Below are positions 1,990-33,935 of a stretch of 34,177 bases of DNA, one piece after another; within the stretch, counting starts at the first letter, position 1, and each line of letters begins with the position of its first letter. Below the pieces are notes generated by a model. The model saw only the letters and a program-made list of their open reading frames with translations. It was not told the DNA's origin and made no database searches. Source of the stretch: an uncultured Bacteroidaceae bacterium (GTDB lineage Bacteria > Bacteroidota > Bacteroidia > Bacteroidales > JAFGXI01); NCBI GenBank assembly GCA_964603745.1, contig CAZRWZ010000003.1, forward strand, positions 1 to 34,177, read 5' to 3'. A program made the position numbers and the translations under genes.

Positions 1990-2151
1990 ATACTCAAACC
2001 AGATAGCTTTTAAGGTTTTCTACTTTTTCTTTTTCCTTTTTTATTTGTTTAAATTTATAAGCGTAACCTAGCTATGCTTAAAATTTTAAACTCTAAAAAA
2101 GAAAAAATAAATCCATATAAATTCCCGAAAAGCTAAATGGATTGAGTATAT
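1990..2151. repeat. REP-A copy 1: ~160-bp long imperfect palindrome (MITE/REP-like intergenic repeat)
   Basis: Termini are atatactcaa / ttgagtatat, a perfect 10-bp inverted repeat. Inner arms also pair: agatagctttt/aaaagctaaat, tttttctttttcc/aaaaaagaaaaaa, gtttaaatttataagcgt/atgcttaaaattttaaac. Near-identical copy at 5055-5222 and a truncated inverted copy at 31220-31334. Confidence 0.85.
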
Positions 2152-2153
2152 AC

Positions 2154-2184
2154 AAAAAAAGCCCGCAATAAGCGGGCTTTTTTT
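2154..2184. terminator. Bidirectional rho-independent terminator
   Basis: A7 run, then gcccgc-aataa-gcgggc (6-bp GC stem), then T7 run. It lies 22 nt downstream of the stop of the minus-strand gene 2206..3936. Confidence 0.8.
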
Positions 2185-2205
2185 GTTTTTTATTAATATG
2201 TTCAA

Positions 2206-3936
2206 TTACTCAACAATTGATTTAAAAGTTGTGTCTTCGAAATAATTAGCAAATTCCATATCTGTTTTTGCAGCAGCCTTAAGACTTGCATTTTTTTCTA
2301 CAGCCGATCTTAAATTATTAAATAATAAATCGGTGTTAGAACTACGTGCACCTGCAATAGCTTTTAAATAAAAATTCATTGCACTGTCTTTGTCGTCTCC
2401 ACTATCAGCAGCTTTAACAGCTCCGTCATTATCTCCGTTTAATAATTTTGCTAAACCTGAGTTAAAAGAATTATTATCGCCAAACATAGAAACAGCACTT
2501 GCGTAATCAGCTTCTTTTATTGCTACAATTCCTTTGTTATAATTAACCTCTGCACCAGCACCTCCGGCAGATGTAAATAATTCTTTTGCATCGGCAACAT
2601 TACCTTTAACTAATTCTACAGCACCTAAATTATTAAGTACTTTAGAGTTTGTGTTATCTAATTCTTTTGCAGCTTCAAAAGCTTGTTTTGCTTCGTCATA
2701 TTTTTCTGTTTCAAATAAGATAACGCCTTTGTTGTTAAAACCTCTCCACTCTTTAGGATAAATTTCGGAACATTTTGTGTATACATTTAATTTTTGGGCT
2801 TGATCTTTTGTTAAAGTAGCAGCATAAAGTAATTCTTCTACATTTAAGCTATCAGGCTTTGCATTAAAAATAGCTGTAATTTCTTCGTCAGAATATCCAA
2901 TTAAATTAACATTAACATTAATTTTAGAACGACGTAATTTAGGAAGTATATCTTTAGCTAATTCTAAATATACAGCAGAAATATTTTTAATTTCTTTTTC
3001 TCTTGTTTCAGTATCAGAATACATAGAAAGAACTTTTAATATTAAGTCTTTATCTGCAATATCAGAAGCTTGAACTAATTGTTTAAAACCGTCCCAGTCT
3101 TCTGCAGTAATATTATTGCTTACAAAATCTTCTTTGCTTGCAGCTTCTACTTTTCTAAATTGTTTTTGAATGTATTTGTCGGCAGCTTTAGAACGATTAT
3201 CGGCTAATTTAGAGTTTAGGTCTTCTGCTCCATCAGGTGATGCATACGAAGAAACTGTTACGCCTGTAAATTCTTTTCTTTCGTTTTCTTTAGCTTCGTT
3301 AATATATTCAACTAATGCTTTAACCTCATCTTTTCTAAGTTCAGAGCTTCTAACTTGGGCTTGTTGTATATTATATAAAATTTCAGCTTGTTTTTTATCA
3401 GCTGTAATTCTTTGGAATTTGTCTGCTCCAATAATTACTTTACCTTTCATATTAACTAAAAGTGGAGTAGCTATAACACCACTAGCTATTTCTTTTACAT
3501 CAAAACCTACTTTTTTGTCAGGTTTAGTAGCAATATAAGCGTCAACTCTAACTTCAAGTTTAGACATTTTCATTGCATCGGCATAAGAAATTCTGTCTGT
3601 GTAAGAAAAGCTTCCACCACTAACGTAAGCTATTGTAGTATTATTATCTTGAACAGCTTCTCCTTGAACTTTTACAGTTTTAAAGGCTTTTTCTCCGCCT
3701 TCCCATTTCAAAACAGGAGTTACGTCGGCCATTGCTTTTTTGTTAAAGTACTTTTCAGGAAATTTTCCTGTAATACTAATATCTACACTATCCGCATGTT
3801 CTTCTAAAACAGGTGGAGTTACAGTATAATCAACCATACCGTAGTTTTTCTTCATTTTGTTTAAGCCACCGCAACTTGTTAAAATTACTGTGGTTAAAGC
3901 CACTGATACTAATGTTAAAATTTTTCCTCGTCTCAT
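2206..3936 (-). CDS. Lipoprotein with OmpA-C-like segment and C-terminal TPR-like repeats
   Basis: ORF track, 576 aa. Lipobox-type signal (VILTS|CGG). Segment SSYASPDGAEDLNSKLADNRSKAADKYI resembles the OmpA/MotB peptidoglycan-binding motif. The C-terminus has helical repeats (KYDEAKQAFEAAKELDNTNSKVLNNLGAVEL...). TAA stop followed by a terminator. Confidence 0.8.
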   Translation of the reverse strand: MRRGKILTLVSVALTTVILTSCGGLNKMKKNYGMVDYTVTPPVLEEHADSVDISITGKFPEKYFNKKAMADVTPVLKWEGGEKAFKTVKVQGEAVQDNNTTIAYVSGGSFSYTDRISYADAMKMSKLEVRVDAYIATKPDKKVGFDVKEIASGVIATPLLVNMKGKVIIGADKFQRITADKKQAEILYNIQQAQVRSSELRKDEVKALVEYINEAKENERKEFTGVTVSSYASPDGAEDLNSKLADNRSKAADKYIQKQFRKVEAASKEDFVSNNITAEDWDGFKQLVQASDIADKDLILKVLSMYSDTETREKEIKNISAVYLELAKDILPKLRRSKINVNVNLIGYSDEEITAIFNAKPDSLNVEELLYAATLTKDQAQKLNVYTKCSEIYPKEWRGFNNKGVILFETEKYDEAKQAFEAAKELDNTNSKVLNNLGAVELVKGNVADAKELFTSAGGAGAEVNYNKGIVAIKEADYASAVSMFGDNNSFNSGLAKLLNGDNDGAVKAADSGDDKDSAMNFYLKAIAGARSSNTDLLFNNLRSAVEKNASLKAAAKTDMEFANYFEDTTFKSIVE

Positions 3937-13130: not shown

Positions 13131-13284
13131 TAATTAGCGTCTGTTCATAAAGTCAAGAGATTGAACTATAAAGTTCGAGTTCAAAGCGTGTGAGGAATTT
13201 AAACCGCAGAATACAAAAGTATTTGAGGATTTAAATTTTGAGCAACAACGCAGAAATCGGACTTTATAGACAAGCTCTAATTAG
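13131..13284. repeat. REP-B copy 1: MITE-like element with ~24-bp terminal inverted repeats
   Basis: Left end is taattagcgtctgttcataaagtc. The right end reverse-complements to taattagagcttgtctataaagtc. The interior carries two gagga-atttaaa-N-gcagaa modules. An inverted homologous copy lies at 24151-24326. Confidence 0.8.
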
Positions 13285-16200
13285 TCTTTTTCTCTAACAA
13301 GTTGTAATGCACCTTTTACTTCAGTTTCTTCGTCGTCGTACACTCCTTTGTATCTAATTACATAGAAATATACACCTGGTGAAGCATAATTGTTTCCAAC
13401 TTTACCGTCCCAACCAGCTTCTTCAGTTCTCCAGTCATCCCATTGATATAAAACTTTACCCCAACGGTTCATAATAAATCCTTCAAATGCTTTTAAAGAT
13501 TTAGCATATACTTGGAAATAATCGTTAGAGCCATCGCCATTAGGTGTAAATACATTAGGTATTTTAATATACGATTCGCTATCAACCATAATAAATCTGT
13601 ATGCAGTAGTATCGTAACAACCTTCTGTGCTTTTAACAATAAGGTCAATTTCGTAGTTTCCTTCTGAGAAAGTATAAGTTGGATATTCGTCTTTAGATTC
13701 GTAGATAATATTACCTTCTTCATCTCTAACAATCCAATTATATTTACTAGCATCAACGGTGTTATGATACATTGTAACATCAAGAGGTGCTGTTCCTTCT
13801 GTATTCATTCTTTCATCATCAATAACAGCATCTATAAAACCACTCTCACCAACAATTAATTGTAATGTATCTTTACAATGATGTTGTTCTCCTACATATC
13901 CCGGGTCTAATGTAATTAGCGATACGTAATCAACAGCAACATAGCTTGTGTCTGATGAAGTTAAACCATAAATAGAATCTATCACACAATTTGCTCCATT
14001 ATCAATTTGTTCGTCAAATCCTTGTATATTATTTTCCGGATCAGCTACCAAAGTAGAACTTTGCCAGCAATTCATTATTGCATAAGAAATAGTATCTTCA
14101 CAAGTTGTAATACTATCGTTAATTATCTTAATAATACCATTATTCTGCCCACATGTTGCATCTCTATTTTCAAACTTAGGATAAACAATTTCCGGTTCTT
14201 TAATAAATGTTGCACCATTTGTTGGAGAAGTACAACCCCAATCACTATGTGTAAGCAAACTTACTTTATGAAGAAGATTATCACAATCGCCATCGGTTGT
14301 CCATCTAACATAATGGCTACCTTGTTTTAAGCTGTCTATATTAGTGCTTGTTCCACTTTCTGTGCTATCTATAGTTGGATTATCAAAGAATTGCCAAGAC
14401 CAACTTGTAGGATTTGCATCGTTATCTGGTTCTGCCCATATTTTGGCAGCTTCTCCATGGCAATAAGGTCTGCGGAAACCTATTTCTCCAGAAGGTCTTT
14501 TAGCAAAAGATAATAATAATGTATCTTTATCTTCGCAACCATTTTCAGAGTTTGTTCCTGTCCATACCAAAGTATAATAATCGTTTCCGGATATTCCTGT
14601 AGAGTTCCATATAATTACAGACACAGAATCGTTCTCTACTTGTGAAACATTACCACTTGCATCAGGATTAAAAAATGATATTCCTGAACTTGCTTTAGAC
14701 CAATAGCCGTCTCCTATATTTATACTAGGATTTAATATATAAAAACCTCCGCCATCAGCTAAACAAACAGTATCAGTTCTTACAGAGTCTACATATTCGC
14801 CTGTAGAAGTTATTGTATTTTCTAATCTATAACAACCCGGACAAGCATCAACTTGTGGTTTTTGTTTAAATGTTACTGTAACAAAATCTGAAGTGTCTTG
14901 ACATACAGGATAATTACTACCCGGTATTATTCCATTTTCTATTACATAAGCAAAAGATGCTGTTCCATAATCACCTGCTGTAACTGTAGTATTAGCTTCA
15001 TGATCACTAGGATCCCAATCAACACCATTTCCTGATAAAGAAATCCAGTATCCTGTTGCACAGTATATGTTTTGAGAATTTGTAAGATCAAGCTTTAAAC
15101 CACAAACCTCAGGTTCTATAATCACAGTATTGTTATCTGCCTGTATATCAGGATAGAAAAATGCTTTCATAGTGTCTTTTGCTACACATTGAGTTCCTGT
15201 GAAAGAACCAATATTATATTCTTGCCATATCATTGTAACAGAATCTACACAATAATGCTCTGGTACAGGAAAAGTGATATACGCATTTGGGTTGTGTTGT
15301 TGATCAGGATCTTCAACTATTGGCATTGTAGTGTTTGCAGTAGTATCAAAAAAGGCAGAATCAGTCCAATAAATAGGAGCATTTTGCCAAGTTCCATAAG
15401 CAGAAGTTCCGCTGGCATCTACCTGAGCATTCATTTGTAGTCTCCAACCACAAATACTTGTGTCGTTTCCTGCACTAATTTCAGGTATTCTAATAAATTC
15501 AATTATAACAGTATCGGTGCTTGCACAAGATTCCATATTGATATTATATTCGTGCCAAACAAAATAATAAGTGCCATATTCTGTAACAGTTATTGATGTT
15601 GCATTAGTATCTTGTGCTGCTTCACTTCCATCTCCAAATGTTACTGAACCACCTGCAGGAACAGAGTCTATTGACCAATGTCCTGCTGATGCATTAATTG
15701 ACGGTGTAGCATGTAATCTCCATTTTTGTCCACAAACACCAATATCCATACCTGCATTTGCTTCGGGTTGTTCAAAGAATGTTATTGTTACCCAACTATC
15801 TGATGTACACTCTGAACCGGAAACTCCTGTGCTACTAGCAGACCAAATAAGTGTAAATTCTACTTGTGAAGAATCTGTCCATTCTAACATATTTGGATTT
15901 ATCGAAATCCAAGTGTTTGGGTCGTTTGGGCTTAATATTGTTAATCTATTATCGGGGCAAGTCCAATGTCCTTGACCTAAAGCTTGCATTTGATAAGAAG
16001 ATTCGCATGTTTCATCATTATTACCCGGATAAGATAATTCGGCAGGGCGTTCAAAAGTTATATCTATATGGTCTTGGCTTTCGCACATACCATTAGAAAC
16101 ATGCCAGTAAAATTGTTCTGTAACATAATCATCTTGACCCCAACTTGGCAAAATTGTTATACAAACATCTGTTACTGTATCAGAAGGAGCTATATATGCT

Positions 16201-18461
16201 CCGTTAGGAGCTGTCCAATATCCATAAAAACCAGGACCCCAGTTTCCAACAGTATCAACAGATAAGCATACAGTGTTTCCACAAGTATCGGCTCCGTTAA
16301 TAATAATATTTGGCATTTGTATAAAAGCAACCTCTACACTTGATGTGTCAGAACACACATTATTAGGGTCAGTTTCTACCCAAAATAAATTATATACTCC
16401 GTAGTTTGCTGTAACAGATGGAGTAGGCGAAGTATTAGGATTAATTGTTACTCCGGTAGTATTTAACCAATGTCCGGTATTACCGGCACTAATAGAGGCA
16501 TGTAAACCTCCTGATGTGCTACAAAAAGCAGTATCTTGTCCTGCAAAAGTATTTATTGTTGGATAAAATGTTATAATTACTTGGTCTGTTGAATCGCAAT
16601 CTCCACTAATTTCGTGATATCCGAAAGTATAAGCTCCCGGCATATTAACTGTTACTTGCGATTGATTATTATTTATTTCACTAAAATCGACACTAGAAGA
16701 TGCCGGAGAATTAATAACTACCCACTCCATATTATTACCCGGAGAAGGAGTATAACCATTCATGCTGTAAATTAATCCACATACATCTTCGTCGGCACCT
16801 GCATCAGGGTGAGGTATTGTACAACAACCATCTGTTCCTGCAGGTAATATACTAACAGAACCTGTTGCAACTTCGGAGGTACAACCATTTTCGGTTACCT
16901 GTAAAGTTATTTGAGCAGGAGAGCAATCTGCAGCTGTTCCCATAGCAAACTGGATTGTTAAAGAATCCGGATTTGTATCGCTTCCTATTAATGTTGCTCC
17001 TGTACATGAGCTTGGCCATGTCCAGTTATATGTAGCACTATTGCTGGCATTACCTACATAAATTAAACTAGCAGTAGAACCTTCGCATATTACATCAGAA
17101 TTAAAAGTAGCAGTAGGTAATTGATTAACTGTTACCGTTTGTTGGCTATTTGCATCAGAGCAACCATTTTCGGCATCAACTTGTAGTGTTATATTATTTG
17201 AACCAACCGGCATAATAACATCATAATCTCCTTGTCCCGATCCTGAAACCACTGTACCACCTGCAAAATCCCAAGTATATGTATCAGTAGCTGTTCCGTT
17301 ACCTGTATATTCTACATGAACCGTATCTCCTTCGCATACTGGTGTTGTTGCTGTAAAATCGGCTGTTATTGGTTGGTTATCTTCAATTGTAATAGTAATT
17401 GTATCTGTTCCACAAACAGATGTTTGTATTATTAAATCAATAGTTTCATTGCCTTCTATATTGCCATCTAAAGTAGGAGTTATCACTATTGCTGTAGAAT
17501 CTTCTCCTGCATTAAATTGGATAGTTCCATTTAAATTATTGTAATCTGTTCCGTTTGTTGCTGTTCCTTCAATTGTATAAGTAATTGTTGAGTCAGAAAT
17601 AACAGGTTGTTCTAAAGTAAAGGAAATAACAACATCTCCACATCCTTCAATAACTGTTCCTGTTGCGTTAGTATTGGTATATGATAAATCAATATCTAAA
17701 GCATTACTAGAAAAACTATTTGCTTCTAAAAATATAGCAGAATCAAATACAGAATCTCCAGCATCTCCTATTGCAATTTTTATATGATATGTTTCGCAAG
17801 CTGTAACATCTAATGATACTGTTAATACTGTTGTTAATCCATCATATTCTACAGTTGTACCACCTGTATTATCAACATAATATTGAGTAGGAAAAACATT
17901 GTCAATTGTAACGGGGTCGGTGCTATTTGGCATTAAAGCAACATTTTTACTGTTATTAGAAAATGGGCCAGATATTCCGGGTCCATTAACAAAAAAGCCA
18001 AATACATCATTAAAATCAGAGCCTACATATTCAGGAAATTCTTCTGATGCAAAAACATATTTAAATTCAACATGGTCTGATAAAGGCACAAAATCAAATT
18101 CTAATACAACGGCATCATTAATTGAATAATTTGAGCCTAATAATTGTTGTAAATCTGGGTCGCTTCCCGAATCAACAGTAGCACCTGCTCCCGGCTGAGT
18201 ATTTGCCGCTAATGCTAGGTTTACATCGCCACAAGCCAAAATTACGCCTCGGTCTAAACCAATTGATGTTGAAGCACAATTGCTAAATTCTCCAATTACT
18301 GCACTTGATGTGGTGTTAATTGTAATGTTAGAAATGTCTACTCCACCACCTACAATAACATCGTTTACGTAATAATCTACGCCTGCACCTGTGGTTACAG
18401 TTTGTGAATAAGATAACAATGTTGTTATCATTAATCCAATAATTAATATATATTTTTTCAT
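13281..18461 (-). CDS. Giant secreted T9SS cargo protein: choice-of-anchor-L N-domain, Calx-beta-like, PKD-like and novel repeats, type-B (gliding motility-associated) C-terminal sorting domain
   Basis: ORF track, 1726 aa, with signal peptide. N-terminal motifs DPDLQQLL..NDAVVLEFDFVPLSDHVEFKYVFASEEFPEYVGSDFNDVFGFFVNGPG...YHIKIAIGDAGDSVFDSAIFLEANSF indicate a choice-of-anchor L domain. TITYTIEGTATNGTDYNNLNGTIQFNAGEDS is Calx-beta-like. The C-terminus IPNVFTPNGDGSNDYF...NRWGKVLY...WDGK...ASPGVYFYVI is a T9SS type-B CTD. Confidence 0.9.
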   Translation of the reverse strand: MKKYILIIGLMITTLLSYSQTVTTGAGVDYYVNDVIVGGGVDISNITINTTSSAVIGEFSNCASTSIGLDRGVILACGDVNLALAANTQPGAGATVDSGSDPDLQQLLGSNYSINDAVVLEFDFVPLSDHVEFKYVFASEEFPEYVGSDFNDVFGFFVNGPGISGPFSNNSKNVALMPNSTDPVTIDNVFPTQYYVDNTGGTTVEYDGLTTVLTVSLDVTACETYHIKIAIGDAGDSVFDSAIFLEANSFSSNALDIDLSYTNTNATGTVIEGCGDVVISFTLEQPVISDSTITYTIEGTATNGTDYNNLNGTIQFNAGEDSTAIVITPTLDGNIEGNETIDLIIQTSVCGTDTITITIEDNQPITADFTATTPVCEGDTVHVEYTGNGTATDTYTWDFAGGTVVSGSGQGDYDVIMPVGSNNITLQVDAENGCSDANSQQTVTVNQLPTATFNSDVICEGSTASLIYVGNASNSATYNWTWPSSCTGATLIGSDTNPDSLTIQFAMGTAADCSPAQITLQVTENGCTSEVATGSVSILPAGTDGCCTIPHPDAGADEDVCGLIYSMNGYTPSPGNNMEWVVINSPASSSVDFSEINNNQSQVTVNMPGAYTFGYHEISGDCDSTDQVIITFYPTINTFAGQDTAFCSTSGGLHASISAGNTGHWLNTTGVTINPNTSPTPSVTANYGVYNLFWVETDPNNVCSDTSSVEVAFIQMPNIIINGADTCGNTVCLSVDTVGNWGPGFYGYWTAPNGAYIAPSDTVTDVCITILPSWGQDDYVTEQFYWHVSNGMCESQDHIDITFERPAELSYPGNNDETCESSYQMQALGQGHWTCPDNRLTILSPNDPNTWISINPNMLEWTDSSQVEFTLIWSASSTGVSGSECTSDSWVTITFFEQPEANAGMDIGVCGQKWRLHATPSINASAGHWSIDSVPAGGSVTFGDGSEAAQDTNATSITVTEYGTYYFVWHEYNINMESCASTDTVIIEFIRIPEISAGNDTSICGWRLQMNAQVDASGTSAYGTWQNAPIYWTDSAFFDTTANTTMPIVEDPDQQHNPNAYITFPVPEHYCVDSVTMIWQEYNIGSFTGTQCVAKDTMKAFFYPDIQADNNTVIIEPEVCGLKLDLTNSQNIYCATGYWISLSGNGVDWDPSDHEANTTVTAGDYGTASFAYVIENGIIPGSNYPVCQDTSDFVTVTFKQKPQVDACPGCYRLENTITSTGEYVDSVRTDTVCLADGGGFYILNPSINIGDGYWSKASSGISFFNPDASGNVSQVENDSVSVIIWNSTGISGNDYYTLVWTGTNSENGCEDKDTLLLSFAKRPSGEIGFRRPYCHGEAAKIWAEPDNDANPTSWSWQFFDNPTIDSTESGTSTNIDSLKQGSHYVRWTTDGDCDNLLHKVSLLTHSDWGCTSPTNGATFIKEPEIVYPKFENRDATCGQNNGIIKIINDSITTCEDTISYAIMNCWQSSTLVADPENNIQGFDEQIDNGANCVIDSIYGLTSSDTSYVAVDYVSLITLDPGYVGEQHHCKDTLQLIVGESGFIDAVIDDERMNTEGTAPLDVTMYHNTVDASKYNWIVRDEEGNIIYESKDEYPTYTFSEGNYEIDLIVKSTEGCYDTTAYRFIMVDSESYIKIPNVFTPNGDGSNDYFQVYAKSLKAFEGFIMNRWGKVLYQWDDWRTEEAGWDGKVGNNYASPGVYFYVIRYKGVYDDEETEVKGALQLVREKD

Positions 18462-19428: not shown

Positions 19429-22209
19429 TTATTTGTTATCAGAAATCTCAATCAACTTTTCAAGTTGCTGAATTCTATATTCTAATTCGTTAATTTTCTT
19501 TTCGTTATGAGATAGTGTAAAATTTTCAAAGAATACAGAAACTAATTTATGTTTAACACCGTTAATCATTTTTGTTTCAGTTTTCCAATTCACGGGTTCT
19601 GCAACACGTGCAATAATATTTGCAACTTCGTATTTTCCAACATCTTTAGTTGCATGTCCTTTTACAGATGATGAAATAAGATAATCACCAATTTGTAAAT
19701 TTTCGCCATTATCAACAATCCACATAGAACCATTTCCTACTGCCATAACTAAATCAGATTTTCTTGTGCTGTTAATTTCTTGTTTGCCAAAGTAAGAACC
19801 TATAATATTTGAAGAATTTTCTTTTTGGCTAACAGTACCTCCATAAATAATTTCACCTGTTTTATTATCATTATCAATATATTCGTTGTTTCCTGTTAGG
19901 CTAATCAACATACCTTCTTCAACATTTTCATTAATATTAACTAAGTGAGAACCTGTAAAAGTTCCGTATGTTAGTATTCCTGTATTATTTACAGATATAC
20001 TTCCTGTTAAAGAAGGAAATCCTACGGCATGTGTTTTAGAATAAAATTCTACTAAAGTACCTGCACCACCTGTTCCTTGAGGAGTCATTAATGTAAAACG
20101 TGCTGCGGCTTCACTTTGTCCTATTACATGTAAACTTCTTTTTGGAGACATTGTTCCAATACCAACATTACCTCCCATTATTGCCATAACACTATCATCA
20201 GTAACAATATAGCCCGAATTGTCTAAAGCAATACCAAACGAATAAGTTCCATTAACAACTATATTATTACCAAAAACTGTTGAATATGCTCCATCGGCAA
20301 CAGTTGCTGAGCCAAAAGATGTTGAATAATTACCAGAAGCAACAGTTGCTGCACCAAAAGCAGTAGATGATACTCCAGAAGCAGTAGTATTCACACCAAA
20401 TGAAGTAGCAAAATATGCTTCAGCATTTGTATTATATCCGAATGCAAATGCACTAAAAGCACTAGCAGTATCTTTAGATCCAAAAGTAAATGATACATCT
20501 CCACTAGAACGATTTAACATTCCAATTGAAAATGCTGCTTGCCCACTAGCTATAACAGAATCTCCAATAGCGAAAGCACCTCTGTTGGTTGCTTCGGAGT
20601 AAACACCAAAAGCAAAAGAGCCATCGCTTGATGAAATATTTCCTGCACCAAAAGCAAAAGAGCCATAACCTGTTGCTTCATTTATATAACCAAATGAAAA
20701 AGCACCAATTCCCGAAGAATTATTTCTTGCTCCAATTGCATAAGATCCTTTAGCATATGTGTGATTATCTAAACCTATTGCAGCAGAATACTGTCCATGT
20801 GTTGACGAACCAACTCCCATTGCAATAGAGAATTTAGCATAAGTTGTATCGTATAAACCCGATGCGAATGAATATGAACCTAAAGCTGCAACATTAGAAC
20901 CAAAAGCAATACAGCCAATAGAATCAGTTCTTGCTCCAAAGCCAAATGCTAAAGAATAGTCGCCTTTAGCAATAGTTCTGTTAGATGTTGATAAACCTGT
21001 AATTGTATCAAATCCGCATGTTCCAAAAGCATAAGATGCATGGCCACCGGCATAAGTAGAATCTCCAAATGCCATAGAATTATCTCCTACTGCATTAGAG
21101 TGTATTCCTATTGATGTTGAGTTAAAACCTGCGGCTCTTGCTTGATATCCCATTGCTTGAGAGTAATCGCCTTTAGATTTACTTTCAAAACCTGCTGCAA
21201 ATGAGTTAAATCCAATACTGTCTCGGTGTTCTATTAAAACTTTTCCCACAAGAAATGCTTCTTTAAAGGGATACCACATTACACGAGCTTGGCTAGGGTT
21301 AATTATTTCGGTGGAGTCGCTTGCTCCAATATTAAAAAAGTCGTTTGATATAGATTTGTTTAATCTGTAGCCTCCTACTGCAAAACCTCCTTTATCGGTA
21401 TTTATTTTAGCTCCATCATCTTCTCTAATATAAATTCTAACACTATCGGGTGTAACTCTTAAATATTCGTTAGTCATTGATTTGTTTAATCTGTAACCTC
21501 CAACAGCAAAACCTCCTTTGTCGGTATTTATTTTTGATGCATTATCATCTACATAAATTCTAACACCTCCATCATAAACTGCAAAAATTGTTTGACCATT
21601 TTTGTTTTTAACTTCAAACAATGCTGAGTCGGGGTCAACATTTTCGTCTCCTTGAATTACCATCATTCCTGAAGGGGTGCTTGTTCCAACGCCAACCCAA
21701 CCATCGTTATAATATAAATTGCTATTATTTTGTTGCCACAAACCTGCATAATCTCCCATAAAAACTTGTCCTCCGTCTGTTAAATAGAGTGTGTCGTTAT
21801 GAAAATTTAATATTTGTTTTGTTTCAACATCTTTAGAATACATAGCAAAAGGTACGGCAACTAGAGTTGATGTACCCATTTCTATATAATTTGATCCTCC
21901 TGTTTCATCAAGTTCAGTTTTCAACGAATAATCTTCTAATTTCCAATTTATTGCCGAAAAATCATCGTTTGTTGTTCCTGTTCCAATATTTAGATTTACT
22001 AAGCCAAAATCATTAGTAGTTTTGTCAAAAGTTTCGGTATAAACAGTTGTTGAAGCTTGTAGAATACTCATTTTAAAAGAGACGTTTTGATTTGATAAAA
22101 TTGCCCCTGATGCATCTCTTACAACTGTTTGATATTTAAAACTATTTGGGAATTGAGCAAGTAAAAAAGTACTTACTAATAATGATAAAATAAATGTAAT
22201 TTTTTTCAT
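19429..22209 (-). CDS. Secreted surface protein with YadA-head-like (Hep_Hag-type) repeats and a C-terminal beta-rich domain plus coiled coil (tail-fibre-like architecture)
   Basis: ORF track, 926 aa. Signal peptide ...TFLLAQ|F. N-domain FKYQTVVRDASGAILSNQNVSFKMSILQ...LVAVPFAMYSKD. Tandem 42-aa duplication (KINTDKGGFAVGGYRLNKS...). About 330 aa of 14-residue-period repeats (SxAxGxxxxAxGxxS, e.g. AAFSIGMLNRSSGDVSFTFGSKDTASAFSAFAFGYNTNAEAYFATSFG). The C-terminal heptad segment is NELEYRIQQLEKLIE. Confidence 0.8.
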   Translation of the reverse strand: MKKITFILSLLVSTFLLAQFPNSFKYQTVVRDASGAILSNQNVSFKMSILQASTTVYTETFDKTTNDFGLVNLNIGTGTTNDDFSAINWKLEDYSLKTELDETGGSNYIEMGTSTLVAVPFAMYSKDVETKQILNFHNDTLYLTDGGQVFMGDYAGLWQQNNSNLYYNDGWVGVGTSTPSGMMVIQGDENVDPDSALFEVKNKNGQTIFAVYDGGVRIYVDDNASKINTDKGGFAVGGYRLNKSMTNEYLRVTPDSVRIYIREDDGAKINTDKGGFAVGGYRLNKSISNDFFNIGASDSTEIINPSQARVMWYPFKEAFLVGKVLIEHRDSIGFNSFAAGFESKSKGDYSQAMGYQARAAGFNSTSIGIHSNAVGDNSMAFGDSTYAGGHASYAFGTCGFDTITGLSTSNRTIAKGDYSLAFGFGARTDSIGCIAFGSNVAALGSYSFASGLYDTTYAKFSIAMGVGSSTHGQYSAAIGLDNHTYAKGSYAIGARNNSSGIGAFSFGYINEATGYGSFAFGAGNISSSDGSFAFGVYSEATNRGAFAIGDSVIASGQAAFSIGMLNRSSGDVSFTFGSKDTASAFSAFAFGYNTNAEAYFATSFGVNTTASGVSSTAFGAATVASGNYSTSFGSATVADGAYSTVFGNNIVVNGTYSFGIALDNSGYIVTDDSVMAIMGGNVGIGTMSPKRSLHVIGQSEAAARFTLMTPQGTGGAGTLVEFYSKTHAVGFPSLTGSISVNNTGILTYGTFTGSHLVNINENVEEGMLISLTGNNEYIDNDNKTGEIIYGGTVSQKENSSNIIGSYFGKQEINSTRKSDLVMAVGNGSMWIVDNGENLQIGDYLISSSVKGHATKDVGKYEVANIIARVAEPVNWKTETKMINGVKHKLVSVFFENFTLSHNEKKINELEYRIQQLEKLIEISDNK

Positions 22210-24422: not shown

Positions 24423-27400
24423 ATGAAGTCAATAACAAATATATTTTCGTCTATAACTGCTGCTATGACACTAATAGTTGTGTATTTTATTAGTGCTGCT
24501 ATTGCCACATTTGTAGAAAACGATTTTGGTGTATCTGCCTCATCTTGGTTAGTTTACAAATCGAGTTGGTTTAATACTTTGCACATACTTTTAGTTATAA
24601 TAATGATTAGTGTAATCATTAAATACAAAATGTTTCAGCTAAAAAAACTTGGGGTCTTAGTTTTTCATATTGGTTTTGTGATAACAATTATTGGTGCGGG
24701 TTTAACCCGATTTATCGGATACGAAGGAACAATGCACATTAGAACAGGCGAAACATCTAATAAAATAATTACAAATCCTAGTTTTTTATTTACCCAAATA
24801 ACCCACAACGATTTACTTTATGTTAGCGAACTACCTGTAAAATTTAACAAATTAAAAAACCCAAGCCATACCGAAGAAATAAATTTTAAGGGAAAAAAAT
24901 TTAAACTTAAAATTACTGATTATATTGCAAATGCAGCAGAAAGAATTGCTAAAGATACAAACGGAGAAACCATTCTTTTATTTATGATTTCTGATGGCAT
25001 TTCTAACAACGAATTTTTTATTAAACAAGCTACAAGTAAAATATTAAACACGCAAAAATTTAGTTTTAATGATGGCAACGACCCCTCTGCAATACATATT
25101 CTTGACACTGATACCGGACTTATTGTAAGTAATCCATATCCAATGCATTACAGAAATATGAGCGATACTATTGAAGGAATAATTCCCGCAGGTGCAACCA
25201 CTAAATTCGTAAAAAATCGCTTATACGAATGGAATATGTATAAACTCGTAATAAAAGAAATTTATACTAATGCTAACACAATTGTTAAATCAAATAAAAA
25301 TACAAATCAATTTCCATTAGACGCAATTTCGGTTGAAATTAGTGATAAAAAAACCTCTAAACAATTTTATGTTTTTGGAAAAGAGCGATTTAAAGGCGAA
25401 CCTGTTATTTTTAGCATAAACGATTACAATTTTGAAGTATCTTACGGCTCAAAAGAAATTGAATTACCATTTAGTTTAACACTAAATAAATTTAGTTTAG
25501 AACGATATCCCGGGTCTATGAGCCCATCATCTTACGAAAGCAATGTAACACTTACCGATAAAGAAAATAACTATTCACACAAGTATAATATTTTTATGAA
25601 TAATGTATTGAATTACAGAGGATATCGTTTCTTTCAATCATCTTACGACCCCGACGAACACGGCACAATTCTATCTGTAAACAAAGATACTTTAGGAACA
25701 TATCTAACATATTTGGGATATATTTTGCTAACACTAGGAATGTTTATCACAATATTTAACAAAAATAGTCGCTATCGAAGTCTTGGTAAAAAACTAAAAG
25801 AAATGTCTAACAAAAAAGCTGCAATTTTAATTATTGGGCTTTTTGTTTCGTTTAGCGGATTTGCCCAAGAAAAAAGCAATTTGCCTGTAATAAATATTGA
25901 GCATTCCGATAAATTCGGACACTTGCAAGTACAAACACAGCAAGGTAGAATAGAGCCTATAAACACCCTATCAAACGAACTTTTACGCAAACTTTCTAAG
26001 CGTTCTACATACAAGGGTTTAAACTCCGATCAAGTTTTTATTAGTATGATTGTAGCTCCCGAAGCTTGGGCAAAAGAGCCGTTAATTAAAATTACTCACC
26101 CCGAGCTTATTAAAATGTTTAACGCAAAAGATAAACATATTGCATTAAGCGATGTTTTCGACATAAACAATAACTACAAAATTCAAAAATTAGTACAAAC
26201 TGCCTACGAAAAAAATAATTCTCGTCGCAATATGCTCGACAAAGACATTATTAAACTCGACGAAAAAGTTAATATACTTTATAATTGGTTAAATGGAAAT
26301 TATCTTACAATTTTTCCTAAACCATTTGATGAAAATAACAAATGGTATAATCTTAACAATGCAGGGCAAGTTTTTGTTGGCGAAGATTCTGCTTTTATTT
26401 ATAATGTTTTTCAGTTATATTACTCTGATTTACTGCAAGCTACAAAAACAAATTCTTGGGCAAAAGCCGACTCGTCTTTGGCATTTATAAATATGTATCA
26501 ACAAAAAGCCGGAGCCAATGTAATTTTATCTGAGAAAAAAATAAACTCCGAAATTCTTTACAACAAAGCAAGTATTTTTCGCCATTTGTTTGAGTTCTAT
26601 TTTATAATTGGCTTGATATATTTGGTATTTTTATTTGTTAAAATTTTATATCCTAAGCTAAAAACCAAATATCTCGATTACGGATTTTTTAGTATTATTC
26701 TAATAGCTTTTGTTTTTCATAACTCTGGTTTAATTTTACGATGGTATGTTTCGGGACACGCACCGTGGAGCAACGGATACGAAAGTATGATTTACATATC
26801 TTGGGCAACAATGCTTGCAGGTTTTATATATTACCGAAATTCTAAAATTGCCCTTGCAGCCACAACAGTTCTTGCCGGAATGGTGCTTTTGGTAGCACAT
26901 CTAAGTTGGATCGACCCACAAATTACAAATCTTGTTCCTGTGCTAAAATCGTATTGGCTTACAATTCACGTTTCGGTAATTACTGCAAGTTACGGATTTT
27001 TGGCACTTGGTGCTTTGCTCGGGTTTATTAATCTGATATTAATAATTTTTAAAAATGCTGAAAACAAAGAACATATAGATTTCAACATCAAAAAAATAAC
27101 TTATATAAATGAAATGTCGCTTACACTAGGCTTGTTTTTACTAACAATAGGCACTTTCCTTGGCGGAGTTTGGGCAAACGAAAGCTGGGGCAGATATTGG
27201 GGTTGGGACCCTAAAGAAACTTGGGCTTTAATTTCAATGTTGGTTTATGCTTTTGTAATCCATATGCGTTTTATTCCAGGTCTGCGCGGATTTTTCGCTT
27301 TCAATTTTGCAGCATTAATTAGTATTTCTTCTGTAATAATGACTTATTTTGGAGTAAACTATTACCTTTCGGGATTACATTCTTATGCTTCGGGCGACCC

Positions 27401-27545
27401 TGTGCCAATTCCTGCATTTGTTTTTTACAGTTTAGCTGTTGTTTTAGTGATTTCGCTTTTTGCGTTTATTAAAGATAAAAAAATCAATAATATTACCACA
27501 AGCAAACAAGATATAGCTAAAGAAACAAATAACAAACCTGACTAA
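24423..27545 (+). CDS. ccsBA: System II cytochrome c synthase, fused CcsB(ResB)-CcsA
   Basis: ORF track, 1040 aa. ResB-like part (ERYPGSMSPSSYESNVTL, NYRGYRFFQSSYD). CcsA part with the Trp-rich haem-handling motif WGRYWGWDPKETWALISMLVY and flanking conserved His residues. Confidence 0.9.
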   Translation: MKSITNIFSSITAAMTLIVVYFISAAIATFVENDFGVSASSWLVYKSSWFNTLHILLVIIMISVIIKYKMFQLKKLGVLVFHIGFVITIIGAGLTRFIGYEGTMHIRTGETSNKIITNPSFLFTQITHNDLLYVSELPVKFNKLKNPSHTEEINFKGKKFKLKITDYIANAAERIAKDTNGETILLFMISDGISNNEFFIKQATSKILNTQKFSFNDGNDPSAIHILDTDTGLIVSNPYPMHYRNMSDTIEGIIPAGATTKFVKNRLYEWNMYKLVIKEIYTNANTIVKSNKNTNQFPLDAISVEISDKKTSKQFYVFGKERFKGEPVIFSINDYNFEVSYGSKEIELPFSLTLNKFSLERYPGSMSPSSYESNVTLTDKENNYSHKYNIFMNNVLNYRGYRFFQSSYDPDEHGTILSVNKDTLGTYLTYLGYILLTLGMFITIFNKNSRYRSLGKKLKEMSNKKAAILIIGLFVSFSGFAQEKSNLPVINIEHSDKFGHLQVQTQQGRIEPINTLSNELLRKLSKRSTYKGLNSDQVFISMIVAPEAWAKEPLIKITHPELIKMFNAKDKHIALSDVFDINNNYKIQKLVQTAYEKNNSRRNMLDKDIIKLDEKVNILYNWLNGNYLTIFPKPFDENNKWYNLNNAGQVFVGEDSAFIYNVFQLYYSDLLQATKTNSWAKADSSLAFINMYQQKAGANVILSEKKINSEILYNKASIFRHLFEFYFIIGLIYLVFLFVKILYPKLKTKYLDYGFFSIILIAFVFHNSGLILRWYVSGHAPWSNGYESMIYISWATMLAGFIYYRNSKIALAATTVLAGMVLLVAHLSWIDPQITNLVPVLKSYWLTIHVSVITASYGFLALGALLGFINLILIIFKNAENKEHIDFNIKKITYINEMSLTLGLFLLTIGTFLGGVWANESWGRYWGWDPKETWALISMLVYAFVIHMRFIPGLRGFFAFNFAALISISSVIMTYFGVNYYLSGLHSYASGDPVPIPAFVFYSLAVVLVISLFAFIKDKKINNITTSKQDIAKETNNKPD

Positions 27546-28424: not shown

Positions 28425-28446
28425 TTAGGGTCTGCAGTAAACCCTA
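28422..28446. terminator. Compact hairpin filling a 19-nt convergent gap (stem tagggt/acccta, 9-nt loop)
   Basis: TAATTAGGGTctgcagtaaACCCTA. The TAA stop of 27585..28424 starts the motif. The TAG stop of 28444..29682 (cta on the + strand) forms the last bases of the 3' stem arm. No long U run, so terminator function is uncertain. Confidence 0.4.
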
Positions 28447-29682
28447 TTTCACAATTTTATCATAAAACTTAATAAACGAATTAAAAAACAAATCGCCTTT
28501 TAACATATAACCTTCTTTTGTAAAATGTATTCTATCTCGTTTCATTAAGTGGTGATTATACCATACTTGCGAAGAATTAAACCCTCCCATAATTTCATAT
28601 AAATCCCACACAGCTGCATTATATTTCTTTGCCAGTTCCATAATAACTTCTTCTTGTAAAGCAGTGTTTTTATTTGGATATTTTTTATATAAATAATCAT
28701 CATTCGGAACAGTAATCATGATGGCTGTGTTTGGGTTTGCGTTTAAGATACGCTGTATTAGAGTGTCGTAATTATTTTTATAAATATTTTTATTAAATTT
28801 TGTTCCATAAGCATCATTTGTTCCCAACGAAAGTATTACCATATCTGGTTTAATTACTTCAATATTTTCTTCAAACATATTGCATTTTAAAAACGAAGGA
28901 ATACTTGCTCCGTTTACACCAACAGCATCGTAAATAATTCCGGGGTCATCAGTTTCCGATTTTATTCCATAAAGTTCAAATCTTTTTTCTAAGCTATCGG
29001 TTTTAACTATTTGTATTCTAATAGTATCGCAATATTTTTCTAAGTGATATTCTGAGTAATGTTTTGTTGGAAAATCAGTTTTTGCAACAATACTATTAGA
29101 TAAAACATTTACATCATAACCAATGCTATCGCTAAGATTATAAAATATTTTAATTTTATTAAAATCGTAAAGCGGATAATTTTCTCTTGAATAAATTGTT
29201 ATTTCGCTAACGCTATCTTTTGTACTTACTTGATATCCTGATAAACCAAAATTACAATTTGTTTTCTTTTTAACATTTTTGCAATGTTTCCAACTACCAG
29301 TATATTTTACTACATAATTATACGGATTATTAGTTTTTGCTATTTTAAAAGGAAAAATAAAACCTCTGCCACCATTTAATCCTGGGTAGAAACTTTGCAT
29401 TCGTTCTCTCATTCTGTTTGTATAAATATCGGCTTGAATATGAGAGCCTCCTATATGTACAATTTCTAATTGTCCTTCTCCTTTTAGGATAATATTTTTG
29501 TATTTAGTAAAAAAATTCACAAAACTACTACTGTCGCCGGGGAATTTAAGAACATTTTTTTTGTAGTTAATAAAATCGTAAAATTTTATTTCGTAAGGAT
29601 ATTCTGGCAATTGAGCAAATACACTCCCAAACGACGAAAGTAATATTGTTAGTAATAACCTATTTAGGATTGTTTTTTGCAT
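28444..29682 (-). CDS. Secreted SGNH/GDSL-family hydrolase (putative O-acetyl esterase/transferase)
   Basis: ORF track, 412 aa, signal peptide ...GSVFAQ. Block I variant VHIGGSHIQAD, block III ILSLGTNDA, block V DRIHFTKEGY. Confidence 0.75.
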   Translation of the reverse strand: MQKTILNRLLLTILLSSFGSVFAQLPEYPYEIKFYDFINYKKNVLKFPGDSSSFVNFFTKYKNIILKGEGQLEIVHIGGSHIQADIYTNRMRERMQSFYPGLNGGRGFIFPFKIAKTNNPYNYVVKYTGSWKHCKNVKKKTNCNFGLSGYQVSTKDSVSEITIYSRENYPLYDFNKIKIFYNLSDSIGYDVNVLSNSIVAKTDFPTKHYSEYHLEKYCDTIRIQIVKTDSLEKRFELYGIKSETDDPGIIYDAVGVNGASIPSFLKCNMFEENIEVIKPDMVILSLGTNDAYGTKFNKNIYKNNYDTLIQRILNANPNTAIMITVPNDDYLYKKYPNKNTALQEEVIMELAKKYNAAVWDLYEIMGGFNSSQVWYNHHLMKRDRIHFTKEGYMLKGDLFFNSFIKFYDKIVK

Positions 29683-29696
29683 TTAATTATAATTAA

Positions 29697-31163
29697 TTAT
29701 AAACTATATTCTATATTTTTTTCTTTGTTTTCATCATATTCATTTAAAGCTTTTTCTAAAGCTTCGTAAAATTTTTCTGCAATAATTTTTGCTCCTTTAT
29801 GCGAAAAATGTATGTAATCTTTTGCGGCTAAAGGAGGCTCGGAATTTACCCAAGCTGGCATTGAGTTTTCTCCGCCCATAGCTTCAAACATATCCCAATA
29901 AATATAACCTGCTTTTTTTGTTACTAACTTCATTTCTTCAATAACCGAAGGTAGCATTGGGTAAGAAATAAACTCGCCGTCAATATTTTGCGACATATCT
30001 GCAGGTCCAATTACAATTATTGGAATTCTTTTGTCTAATTTTTTAAACATTTTAAGCTGTTTGTAAAATGCATTACAATATCTTTTAACACCTCGTTCTG
30101 TTTTTATGTATGGAATAGCATTGCCGCCATATTCAAGAATTACCATTTTTACGTTTAATAGATTAAACATTTTTTTATATGAGCTGTAATATATACTCGT
30201 AAAATCGGTTCCTGATGCTCCACGCATTGGAATATTATCTACTACAATACCTCTTGTGTTTTCAAGCGAAATACCGTAAATATCAGGACTATCTTTACCT
30301 GTAAATTTTATACTAAGTTTTTTAGGCGATTTTTTTAAATACCATTCTTTAACTTGCACAGATTTTTTTGTGCTAAGTTTATCAAAATGTATAAGTTTGT
30401 CATCGGCATAAACTTCGGCTAAAACAGGCTCATGCGAATTTCCGTAAAATAATCGTACTTTGTTGTAATATCTATCGTTTCTGTATGCAATATTTGAACG
30501 GCTAAAATTAATACTTGCCTCATAAACAGGTGTGTCTGCTTGCATTTTTAGTGGTGCAAATCTAGAAAAAGTTCCCATAGCACCATAATTTCTATGGGTT
30601 AAATTGGAGTCTCTTCTGCCAAAGATATTATATCTTTTCCAATTCCCTTCAATTTCTTGATTTATTGAAAACGATTCTGCAAGTTTATCTGCGGCAACAA
30701 GTCCATTTCCTGAACCGCCAAAGCGTTTCTGCATTTTATATCGTAAATAACCAGTTATTCTATCTCCTTCTATTTGCGAATCGCCATAGTGTAATACGTG
30801 AGCTGTTTTTCGGCTTTTTTCCATGTCTTCAAAAAAGTTATAAAGTAGAATTCTACCTGCATCGCTATATATTAAAGTTTGAATGCTTTTTGTTTTAATT
30901 TCCAGACTGTCTATGTTTTTTACATCTGCCGTATCAGTGCCTTTGTTTACAGCTATTTCTGGCTCATCAATTTTTATGTTTACAATATCAGAAATATCAA
31001 CATATTCTGTTTTTTTATTTTCTAATAACGAATTAAATGAAATAAATTTTAAATTGAAGTTATCTGAAATTTTAATTTTTCCATTGGCAAAAGGGATTGT
31101 TAAAAGTAGCAAAACAAAAAGTGTACTTATTATAAAAATTAATATTTGCCACGGTTTTATCAT
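29697..31163 (-). CDS. Membrane-anchored SGNH/GDSL-family hydrolase
   Basis: ORF track, 488 aa, N-terminal TM helix. Block I LHYGDSQIEGD, block V DYIHFSHKGA. It lies 14 bp upstream of the second SGNH gene on the same strand. Confidence 0.75.
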   Translation of the reverse strand: MIKPWQILIFIISTLFVLLLLTIPFANGKIKISDNFNLKFISFNSLLENKKTEYVDISDIVNIKIDEPEIAVNKGTDTADVKNIDSLEIKTKSIQTLIYSDAGRILLYNFFEDMEKSRKTAHVLHYGDSQIEGDRITGYLRYKMQKRFGGSGNGLVAADKLAESFSINQEIEGNWKRYNIFGRRDSNLTHRNYGAMGTFSRFAPLKMQADTPVYEASINFSRSNIAYRNDRYYNKVRLFYGNSHEPVLAEVYADDKLIHFDKLSTKKSVQVKEWYLKKSPKKLSIKFTGKDSPDIYGISLENTRGIVVDNIPMRGASGTDFTSIYYSSYKKMFNLLNVKMVILEYGGNAIPYIKTERGVKRYCNAFYKQLKMFKKLDKRIPIIVIGPADMSQNIDGEFISYPMLPSVIEEMKLVTKKAGYIYWDMFEAMGGENSMPAWVNSEPPLAAKDYIHFSHKGAKIIAEKFYEALEKALNEYDENKEKNIEYSL

Positions 31164-31334: not shown

Positions 31335-31343
31335 ACAAGAATC

Positions 31344-31385
31344 AAAAAAAGACTGTCTTAGTTTATCTTTAGACAGTCTTTTTTT
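31344..31385. terminator. Bidirectional rho-independent terminator
   Basis: A7, then agactgtct-(12-nt loop)-agacagtct (perfect 9-bp stem), then T6. It lies 21-27 nt beyond the TAA at 31406 that ends the extended DUF1573 reading frame. Confidence 0.8.
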
Positions 31386-31405
31386 ATAATTAATTTTACT
31401 TATTT

Positions 31406-31639
31406 TTAATGTGCAGTATTATTTTTTGCAGGTGCTGTATGCTGTGGCTGTGTTGCAGCAGGAACAACAACCTCGCCAGACATTTTAAGCAGTATTATTT
31501 GATGGTTAGGGTCGTTAGTGGTAACAGTTATAGTTTTGTTTTGTTTATTTCTTTTACCTCTAGTGTTAAATGATACAGATACTTTTCCTGTTTCACCTTT
31601 TTTTATTGGTTGGTTAGTTTTGCTAACCGCTGTGCAACC
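31406..31639 (-). other. Same-frame continuation of the DUF1573 gene beyond the TGA (77 codons + TAA)
   Basis: My translation is GCTAVSKTNQPIKKGETGKVSVSFNTRGKRNKQNKTITVTTNDPNHQIILLKMSGEVVVPAATQPQHTAPAKNNTAH*. It completes the domain (xGCT...P.K.GE.G.I.V.F.T.GK.G...K.ITV.TN) and ends just before the terminator at 31344-31385. Confidence 0.75.
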
Positions 31640-32584
31640 TCAACTGCCTTTTACTTTTCTAATAATTAAGTCGTTTTTGCCTTCGTTTTTAAAAGTAAAC
31701 TCGTGTTTAACAACTTCTCCTTGTTTTACAGTGCCAAATTTATATACTGTTGTATCAAATTTAATAATTGGTGCTGCTGCAAGTTGTTCAGGTGTCCAGT
31801 TACTAAAGTCTTCTTCAATTGTAGCTCTAATTGTAATATAGTTTGCTCTGCCATCTACTTTATCATTAATTATTACATTAATTCTTCTGTTTTGAGCACC
31901 CCATAATTGTTTTCCGTTTCCATCTACAACTTTGCTGGCATCATAGGTAATATAAATTTTACCTTTTTGTTTTGGTTTTAATACTTGCGGAACTGCTTTC
32001 ATTGTTATATAAGCAGGAACATTTTTAAAAGCAATTTTTAAATCATCAACACTATTATTAATAATGTCGGTAGAATCAGTTTTAACTTGTGTGTTCTTTA
32101 ATTTGTTTAAAGCAAAGAAATTCTTTTTTAAACGAAGCCTTCCATTGTCCATTTGCTGACGATATTTATCTGCAATAGATTGTGGTTTAGGTATTACGTT
32201 TCCGGTTACTCTAAGATAGTTAGTTCCTGAATTTGAGGTAACTGTTAGCCTTTTATTAATTCTTCCGGAAGTTCTTTGTGGATTATATCTTGATTTAATA
32301 ACTCCTTTTTCGCCTGGCTTAATTGCTGTTTTAGGCCATTCATAAGCTGTAAGCCCATAATCAGGTTTAACACTCGTTATCAATAAATCTTCAGCTCCAA
32401 TGTTTGTAAATTCAAACAAACATTCTATTGTTCCATCAACTTCTCTGATAGTTCCTAGCTGATAAACCTCTTTAACAAACGAGATTTTAGCTTGCTTCTG
32501 TTGGGCAATGATATTTAGGCTAAAAAGCATAAATAAACCCATAATAATTACATTATTCTTCATCTCATATAAATTTTTTAACAT
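31640..32584 (-). CDS. DUF1573-like repeat protein (three domains), as delimited by an in-frame TGA
   Basis: ORF track, 314 aa. Signal peptide and three ~95-aa domains of the DUF1573 pattern (F.FG.V..G......F.F.N.G...L.I..V). The track ORF ends ...LIIRKVKGS-TGA, in the middle of the third domain. Confidence 0.8.
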   Translation of the reverse strand: MLKNLYEMKNNVIIMGLFMLFSLNIIAQQKQAKISFVKEVYQLGTIREVDGTIECLFEFTNIGAEDLLITSVKPDYGLTAYEWPKTAIKPGEKGVIKSRYNPQRTSGRINKRLTVTSNSGTNYLRVTGNVIPKPQSIADKYRQQMDNGRLRLKKNFFALNKLKNTQVKTDSTDIINNSVDDLKIAFKNVPAYITMKAVPQVLKPKQKGKIYITYDASKVVDGNGKQLWGAQNRRINVIINDKVDGRANYITIRATIEEDFSNWTPEQLAAAPIIKFDTTVYKFGTVKQGEVVKHEFTFKNEGKNDLIIRKVKGS

Positions 32585-33623: not shown

Positions 33624-33935
33624 TTAGGCTACGTTTATTATCTCTCCGTATTTTTTAATCTCATTTACTAATGGATTACTTTCATTAAAATCACTTTCTT
33701 TTATTGGGTGCGGTTCAATTCGGCTATCAATTTGTCGACGCAATCTCATTAATTCAAGTTGTATATTCATTAGATTATCGTAGTCTTTTAGAATAACAGC
33801 AATATCAATGTCGCTATCAATATGACTTGAACCTTTTGCATAAGAACCGAATAAAATAATTCCTACACAGTCATATTTTTCAGTGACTTTTACAGCAAAT
33901 CTTTTAACTATGTCTATAATTTCTCTTTTATCCAT
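33624..33935 (-). CDS. Minimal nucleotidyltransferase (MNT/MntA-like antitoxin candidate)
   Basis: ORF track, 103 aa. Pol-beta-type motif ILFGSYAKGSSHIDSDIDIAV (G-S-x(n)-D-x-D). Confidence 0.8.
   Translation of the reverse strand: MDKREIIDIVKRFAVKVTEKYDCVGIILFGSYAKGSSHIDSDIDIAVILKDYDNLMNIQLELMRLRRQIDSRIEPHPIKESDFNESNPLVNEIKKYGEIINVA

Follow-up and report, generated by a model that had tools for sequence, protein, structure and literature searches.

OS_HP2 ("Olavius symbiont's hypothetical protein 2") was defined as a selenoprotein family in 2007 (Zhang & Gladyshev; PMC1976440), in a paper that shows no selenocysteine insertion sequence (SECIS) element for it, and the 2008 survey of the Global Ocean Sampling (GOS) metagenome described it as pfam07610 with a UxC motif, with 2 selenocysteine (Sec) forms and 354 Cys homologues (PMC2398784). 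DUF1573 proteins with a UxC/UGC motif are listed as a selenoprotein family in reviews (PMC9312934, PMC13188914). Here we describe a DUF1573 gene with an in-frame TGA, located on the minus strand of contig CAZRWZ010000003.1 (GCA_964603745.1) from an uncultured Bacteroidaceae bacterium. The whole stretch of DNA analysed, 34,177 nt long, is referred to as the window, and all positions are those of the window. Selenocysteine is the most likely reading of the UGA at 31642..31640, which, judged from the sequences compared below, is a genuine conserved recoding site; the gene adds a new member, from a Bacteroidales lineage, to the known DUF1573/OS_HP2 family of selenoproteins.

The minus-strand open reading frame (ORF) from 32584 reads ...NDLIIRKVKGS up to the TGA and then continues in the same frame as GCTAVSKTNQPIKKGE / GCTAVSKTNQPIKKGETGKVSVSFNTRGKRNKQNKTITVTTNDP..., remaining open for 77 codons up to a TAA at 31408..31406. 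Although the ORF can also start at 32584, its likely start is the second ATG at 32563, where the orthologues begin (MKNN/MRNN), and the full predicted selenoprotein coding sequence thus occupies 31406..32563 with 385 codons, the Sec-UGA included. The predicted Sec codon (31640..31642, minus strand) is residue 315 if the numbering starts with the ATG at 32584, and the TGC at 31634..31636 encodes the partner Cys of the resulting U-G-C motif. A previous reading of the window from its letters only (the sequence-only reading) had given the positions of the TGA, of the 77 open codons and of the TAA, all of them correctly, and had assigned the TGA to the first Cys of the S-C-G-C-T motif of a DUF1573 domain. 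The latter assignment was borne out by the Pfam match and by the alignment to Cys homologues. When the stop was replaced by C, the 392-aa product matched Pfam DUF1573 (PF07610) with an E-value of 6.5e-56, the best stretch (residues 274-372) covering the profile end to end (positions 1-98 of 98), and scored 115.2 bits against NCBIfam NF041425, "OS_HP2 family (seleno)protein", whose curated cut-off is 100.

The locus resembles the OS_HP2 family in its Pfam domain, in a U-G-C motif with the predicted Sec at the first Cys of CGC and in its score above the NF041425 cut-off, as well as in the fact that Cys homologues far outnumber the Sec forms. Unlike the published members, whose sources are ocean metagenomes and the deltaproteobacterial symbionts of worms, the clade of the window belongs to the Bacteroidales, and its protein has three immunoglobulin (Ig)-like domains, the first of which is devoid of CxC. 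Since DUF1573 proteins with U-G-C are already published and included in NCBIfam, this is not a new kind of selenoprotein; a known family is extended and current understanding is not overturned. What the locus adds is modest, namely the phylum, a SECIS-like loop without G and the loss of the first CxC.

The protein search returned 566 homologues, and DNA was retrieved for 16 related loci (L001-L016); scans of genome and metagenome collections gave 3 and 4 loci respectively. TGA occurred at the same codon in 17 of 17 loci, the window included, which correspond to 13 distinct sequences with about 50-98% protein identity; none of the members of this clade has TGT or TGC there. Three of these loci (L001, L002 and L003) derive from named Bacteroidales metagenome-assembled genomes (MAGs), labelled "uncultured Bacteroidales bacterium", "Paludibacter propionicigenes" and "Acetofilamentum sp.", and the 13 closest protein clusters all signal a TGA at that codon. 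In the Cys homologues, the TGA aligns with the first Cys of SCGCT, C315 being nearly invariant and C317 invariant among 111 sequences, and SCGCT stands at the TGA position in the more distant homologues (50% identity or less). The comparison of orthologues that had been proposed as a check thus gave Cys at this column in the Cys-type homologues and TGA in 13 distinct related sequences. The partner Cys, a column occupied by Cys in 111/111 aligned homologues, is encoded by TGC in all 13 Sec-type sequences (from a codon table for 12 of them and alignment A5 for L003), although the genes of the window use TGT 51 times and TGC 29 times. This uniform TGC could reflect a constraint at the RNA level or on codon context near the recoding site.

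The minimal SECIS of E. coli fdhF is a 17-nt upper stem-loop located 11 nt from the UGA. The SECIS-like hairpin of the window, GGUUAG-CAAAA-CUAACC (31612..31628, minus strand), has the same length and the same spacer, with a 6-bp stem and a 5-nt loop, the whole element beginning 11 nt past the UGA. In order to score this helix across orthologues, an ungapped alignment (A5) of the 13 distinct sequences was used, in which the 6 pairs join columns 33-38 with 44-49. Standard pairing was found in 96.2% of the cells, versus 8-36% when the 3' arm was slid by 1-3 columns. Compensatory changes were detected in three of the six pairs, and the covariation score was 0.376 compared with 0.176 for the shuffles, none of which (0/500) reached the observed value. 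The same 6-pair helix was obtained independently by RNAalifold. The candidate SECIS hairpin is thus well supported through covariation across orthologues, and the covariance folding of orthologous loci that had been suggested with the sequence-only reading returned a conserved downstream hairpin with compensatory changes at half of its pairs.

Through the covariation, a synonymous site is coupled to an amino-acid change: Asn AAC accompanies Val GUU, Asp GAC or GAU accompanies Val GUC, and Gly GGC accompanies Ala GCC, while the flanking pair varies among A-U, U-G, G-C, C-G and U-A. The codons chosen in the stem also depart from the local preference in the direction that keeps the pairs (12 sequences tabulated, with L003 in agreement in A5). 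The stem Val is always GTY and never GTA, whereas GTA is used by the majority of sequences at other mostly-Val codons nearby; the stem Thr/Ala codon always ends in T, ACT being invariant; and the stem Asn/Asp codon ends in C in 11 of the 13 sequences, whereas 10 of the 12 tabulated sequences use AAT for the Asn at codon +25. No hairpin was present at the corresponding position in the four Cys-type homologues examined (4/4). Hairpin energies in the orthologues ranged from -7.4 to -17.2 kcal/mol.

An outer GGUU/AACC pairing (31639-31636 with 31611-31608) might extend the hairpin with a lower stem spanning 31608..31639 on the minus strand, and it occurs in the minimum free energy (MFE) fold of the window. 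Both this pairing and the hairpin itself had been noticed in the sequence-only reading and both are present in the sequence. Many orthologues have a GGYU...RRCC pairing whose register shifts, so that the outer stem has weak support and was not counted. RNAalifold also proposed a 5-bp helix GGYAG/GYUGC (31634..31647, minus strand) with the UGA in a UGAG tetraloop, which is unsupported, as it showed wobble (one-sided) changes only and none that were compensatory; the conserved codons GGY AGU UGA GGY UGC alone may account for it. Rfam searches of the whole window at gathering thresholds, and of 31500-31700 at E <= 10, returned noise only (miRNA models with 13-16 bits), and none of the Rfam families matched the coding-region hairpin in these searches.

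These data were compared with the consensus model of bSECISearch, which describes an apical loop of 3-9 nt and an upper stem of 4-16 bp just downstream of the UGA, with a G within the first two loop positions (PMC13188914). The hairpin is likewise a coding-region element just 3' of the UGA, having a covariation-supported upper stem of 5-6 bp and a 5-nt loop, and its UGA-to-loop distance of 17 nt (the 11-nt spacer plus the 6-nt 5' arm) falls within the 16-37 nt of the model. It differs from the consensus in the lack of G or GU at the first loop positions and in the lack of a bulged U; its thermodynamic stability, which the model also takes into account, is modest. A G would be available to the loop only if the invariant closing G-C pair were opened (G-Y-A-A-A-A-C), which is a permissive reading of the model.

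Taken as a whole, the locus is very probably best explained by a Sec-decoded UGA, with the hairpin acting as a bacterial SECIS, within a putatively exported three-domain DUF1573/OS_HP2 protein. The conservation of the TGA, the purifying selection downstream of it, the covariation of the hairpin, the Cys column in the homologues and the score against the family model (HMM, hidden Markov model) carry this explanation, which was also the leading one in the sequence-only reading and gains support from the comparative evidence. From these data we infer that the hairpin, 11 nt past the codon, would bind SelB while the UGA occupies the ribosomal A site and would recruit the SelB-GTP-Sec-tRNA(Sec) complex; Sec would be inserted, and the ribosome would then melt the hairpin and finish domain 3. 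The protein would be exported via its signal peptide, and the U-G-C, which replaces the C-G-C of most homologues in a beta-turn of domain 3, might act as a selenenylsulfide redox centre or as a site for soft metals. Most plausibly, the U-x-C pair would form a reversible, redox-active selenenylsulfide or bind a soft metal.

Several observations weigh against Sec decoding. The G required by the model is absent from the loops of the clade (CAAAA, UAAAA, UAAAG, UAACG and CACAA), and the stability of the hairpin in the window, -8.0 kcal/mol, is ordinary, with an MFE z-score of -0.69 relative to shuffled sequences. Since thermodynamics on the single sequence are not significant, the case for the hairpin rests on covariation; the statement in the sequence-only reading that the SECIS evidence was weak was therefore fair for one sequence, but does not hold once the orthologues are considered. 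ARAGORN found no tRNA, and hence no tRNA-Sec, in the window and the 12 loci scanned, and tblastn with E. coli SelA and SelB gave no match in 207 kb (the window plus related contigs; selD was not searched), an amount of DNA far too small to inform on the Sec machinery of whole genomes. Finally, surveys of cultured genomes in 2006 (PMC1794560) and 2015 (PMC5322559) report the Bacteroidetes as lacking the Sec-decoding trait, and a search of the available literature on Sec in Bacteroidota or Bacteroidales turned up only statements of its absence and no later paper reporting it there. This reported absence at the level of the phylum is the main residual uncertainty and likewise the main source of residual interest, as a conserved selenoprotein would be placed in the Bacteroidales, within a phylum scored Sec-free by the older surveys, together with a compact SECIS that is backed by covariation and whose loop is unusual. 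We tentatively suggest, as a possibility that is still doubtful, that UGA is read as Sec in an uncultured Bacteroidales clade, whose MAGs include those named Paludibacter, Acetofilamentum and "uncultured Bacteroidales", through a SECIS variant with an A-rich loop devoid of the guanine contacted by SelB in model systems, despite those surveys. If true, the G-less loop would imply a divergent SelB-RNA recognition or a laterally acquired one, a non-Sec recoding route being the rarer alternative.

Such a route might insert Cys by means of a tRNA-Sec-like tRNA(Cys) and a SelB-like factor, or consist of hairpin-stimulated near-cognate read-through (Trp/Cys) in a lineage devoid of the canonical Sec machinery. 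The reported lack of the Sec trait in Bacteroidetes and the loop without the consensus G would both fit this mechanism. However, bacterial selenoproteins have as their standard signature a TGA aligned with Cys, an x-C directly after it and a hairpin at the canonical distance, and the DUF1573/OS_HP2 family already includes accepted Sec members. Moreover, there would be no obvious gain in keeping a costly UGA over about 50% divergence if a plain Cys were usable, and we consider recoding to a residue other than Sec unlikely.

An even less probable explanation is that the TGA is a genuine stop, leaving a product of 307-314 aa with two and a half domains and a tail of 77 codons that is untranslated or forms a separate small gene. 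Public gene calls do agree with it in part, since 8 of the 13 orthologue clusters (P0003-P0009 and P0041) are truncated at ...VKGS with 307-311 aa, and the tail is sometimes called as a gene of its own with 59-72 aa (L015 9293-9511, L016 10979-11158). However, the tail is in the same frame in every orthologue, with a ratio of nonsynonymous to synonymous substitutions (dN/dS) of 0.1-0.3, and no start codon occurs at the junction. Pairwise Nei-Gojobori estimates against the window gave 0.09-0.26 over 58 ungapped codons after the TGA and 0.13-0.47 over 45 codons before it, values that are not distinguishable, with synonymous sites near saturation downstream of the TGA (pS 0.5-0.7); purifying selection thus acts on the tail just as it does on the remainder of the gene. 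Termination at the TGA would also sever the third beta-sandwich after four strands in the AlphaFold2 model, thus splitting a single domain. As for transcription, an intrinsic terminator consisting of a hairpin and a U-run lies past the TAA (31343..31386, minus strand; -17.6 kcal/mol, z = -4.78, with 0/200 shuffles as stable), unlike the region directly 3' of the TGA, where no terminator was found. This is the arrangement indicated by the sequence-only reading; a simple terminator scan missed the terminator because its loop is 12 nt long.

The two remaining explanations have a negligible probability. A recent nonsense mutation or a sequencing or assembly error (TGT/TGC to TGA), both put forward as alternatives in the sequence-only reading, would take one third-position change only, but is rejected by the comparison of orthologues, as the TGA is shared by 17 loci from different samples, assemblers and independent assemblies, is retained in 13 distinct sequences down to about 50% identity ahead of a tail under purifying selection, and is never replaced by TGT or TGC within the clade. 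An alternative genetic code in which TGA specifies an amino acid (Trp in code 4 or Gly in code 25) might be suggested by the AT-rich genome (29.9% GC) and by the W that the other five of the 13 clusters (P0001, P0002, P0010, P0011 and P0064) show at the TGA column. This W is a gene-calling artefact of code 4, because P0010 and P0064 are not reproduced by table 11 and the DNA of the loci matching or closest to the W proteins (L004/L005, L007/L016, L014, L002 and L012) shows TGA. In addition, the 19 ORFs of the window contain a single in-frame TGA in 9575 codons versus 89 TGG, and uninterrupted table-11 ORFs reach 1726 aa, so that TGA is not reassigned genome-wide and this explanation is rejected on the codon counts as well.

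Stop usage points in the same direction, as one gene of the window does end in TGA. The sequence-only reading had counted TAA 13 times, TAG 5 times and TGA once over 19 gene ends; the figures for TAA and TGA stand, whereas TAG closes 4 ORFs, the total being 18 other ORFs. No other read-through candidate outside the DUF1573 gene family emerged when the window and all loci were scanned, and the remaining TGA-bridged open frames in the window are all antisense to real genes. The gene and all 13 of its orthologue clusters are thus mis-annotated in public protein sets, 8 being cut at ...VKGS and 5 carrying a spurious Trp, and none of the clade members (P0001-P0011, P0041 and P0064) is annotated as a selenoprotein in public gene calls. 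Therefore, domain 3 and the reactive residue are lost or wrong in the public proteins.

The organization of the protein was examined on an AlphaFold2 model built with 111 homologues (mean predicted local distance difference test score, pLDDT, 93.6), which showed three Ig-like beta-sandwich domains and an N-terminal hydrophobic helix. The helix (residues 3-23 of the model) corresponds to a predicted signal peptide at 32504..32563 on the minus strand (MKNNVIIMGLFMLFSLNIIA|QQ), whose putative cleavage at the A-QQ junction is suggested by the conservation of this junction in the alignments, and the product is thus predicted to be an exported (secreted or periplasmic) three-domain Ig-like protein. 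Domain 1, of DUF1573 type, extends over 32192..32488, domain 2, a middle beta-sandwich with no Cys motif, over 31814..32158 according to the secondary structure of the model, and domain 3 (DUF1573), which bears the U-G-C motif and contains the best Pfam stretch, over 31466..31765, all on the minus strand. Residue 315 lies in the turn between the beta-strands 308-313 and 317-321 of domain 3. Domain 1 has K-P-D-Y-G-L-T instead of the CxC motif (32368..32348, residues 73-79; alignment A1), and relatives have ADYGIK or GDVAIS; the S-C-G-C-T is lost, with DYG or DVA instead, in every member of the Sec clade possessing that domain, which is absent from P0064.

The closest Cys-type proteins are the DUF1573 proteins of Bacteroidota (for instance P0012-P0120; Bacteroidales, Marinilabiliaceae and Salinivirgaceae), which are 355-411 aa long, share three domains and a signal peptide with the window protein at 40-50% identity, and have the context ...IRK.K.S-C/U-GCTA... 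in common with it. They differ from the Sec clade in the presence of SCGCT in domains 1 and 3 alike (alignment A1), in TGT/TGC at the Sec column, and in the lack of both the downstream hairpin and the domain 2 insertion (VVDGNGKQ; A1 columns 240-250), about 6 residues long, that is specific to the Sec clade. The occurrence of C-G-C in two domains of the Cys-type proteins versus a single U-G-C in the Sec clade therefore suggests that this motif might be the functional centre of DUF1573 and that one Sec site might substitute for two Cys sites.

A sequence search of the PDB with domain 3 gave no match at E <= 1. In the fold search, the best rigid match was PDB 2qsv, a functionally uncharacterised protein of Porphyromonas gingivalis W83, with a target-normalised template modelling (TM) score of 0.72 over 236 aligned columns. 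Together with the ASH/HYDIN/CEP192-type domains, it shares the tandem beta-sandwich fold, but at 15% identity it is informative on the fold only. The other matches were generic ASH/HYDIN Ig-like domains, and the fold search as a whole gave no functional lead.

Two of the related loci showed a different gene organization. In L003, from the Acetofilamentum sp. MAG (DYOK01000081), the Sec-type gene (2569..3495) has directly upstream of it a short DUF1573 gene of Cys type (SCGCI, 2052..2513), the two being tandem paralogues; the Sec-type gene encodes two domains and contains VRNVKGS-TGA-GCTAVSTTD, followed by the hairpin GUCAG-CACAA-CUGAC. In L012, the Sec-type gene at 330..1193 (P0064) encodes 287 aa, lacks domain 1 and has the motif context KAG-U-GCTAAS; the pairing of its hairpin is completely restored (GCCAG-UAACG-CUGGC).

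As for the gene neighbourhood, trmN lies upstream of the selenoprotein gene in divergent orientation, and this synteny is kept in several loci. Downstream of the gene, L008, L009 and L015 have acpP-fabF-rnc, and the window has two ORFs of 488 and 412 aa (28444..31163, minus strand) with no NCBIfam match. Elsewhere in the window, an ORF of 103 aa at 33624..33935 (minus strand) resembles the MntA-like nucleotidyltransferase that serves as a type VII toxin-antitoxin antitoxin, with 44 bits against a cut-off of 60. A 926-aa ORF at 19429..22209 (minus strand) gave weak matches to trimeric-autotransporter adhesin repeats and to the N-terminal domain of a Bdellovibrio "mosaic adhesive trimer", all far below the cut-offs. 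The C-terminal quarter of a 1040-aa ORF at 24423..27545 (plus strand) matches the cytochrome c biogenesis protein CcsB with 186.8 bits versus a cut-off of 187.6, and this ORF looks like a fused ResB/CcsA-type protein. Finally, the 1726-aa protein encoded at 13281..18461 (minus strand) has a type IX secretion system (T9SS) type B sorting domain at its C terminus, besides a choice-of-anchor L domain (1.2e-66), and marks the contig as Bacteroidota.

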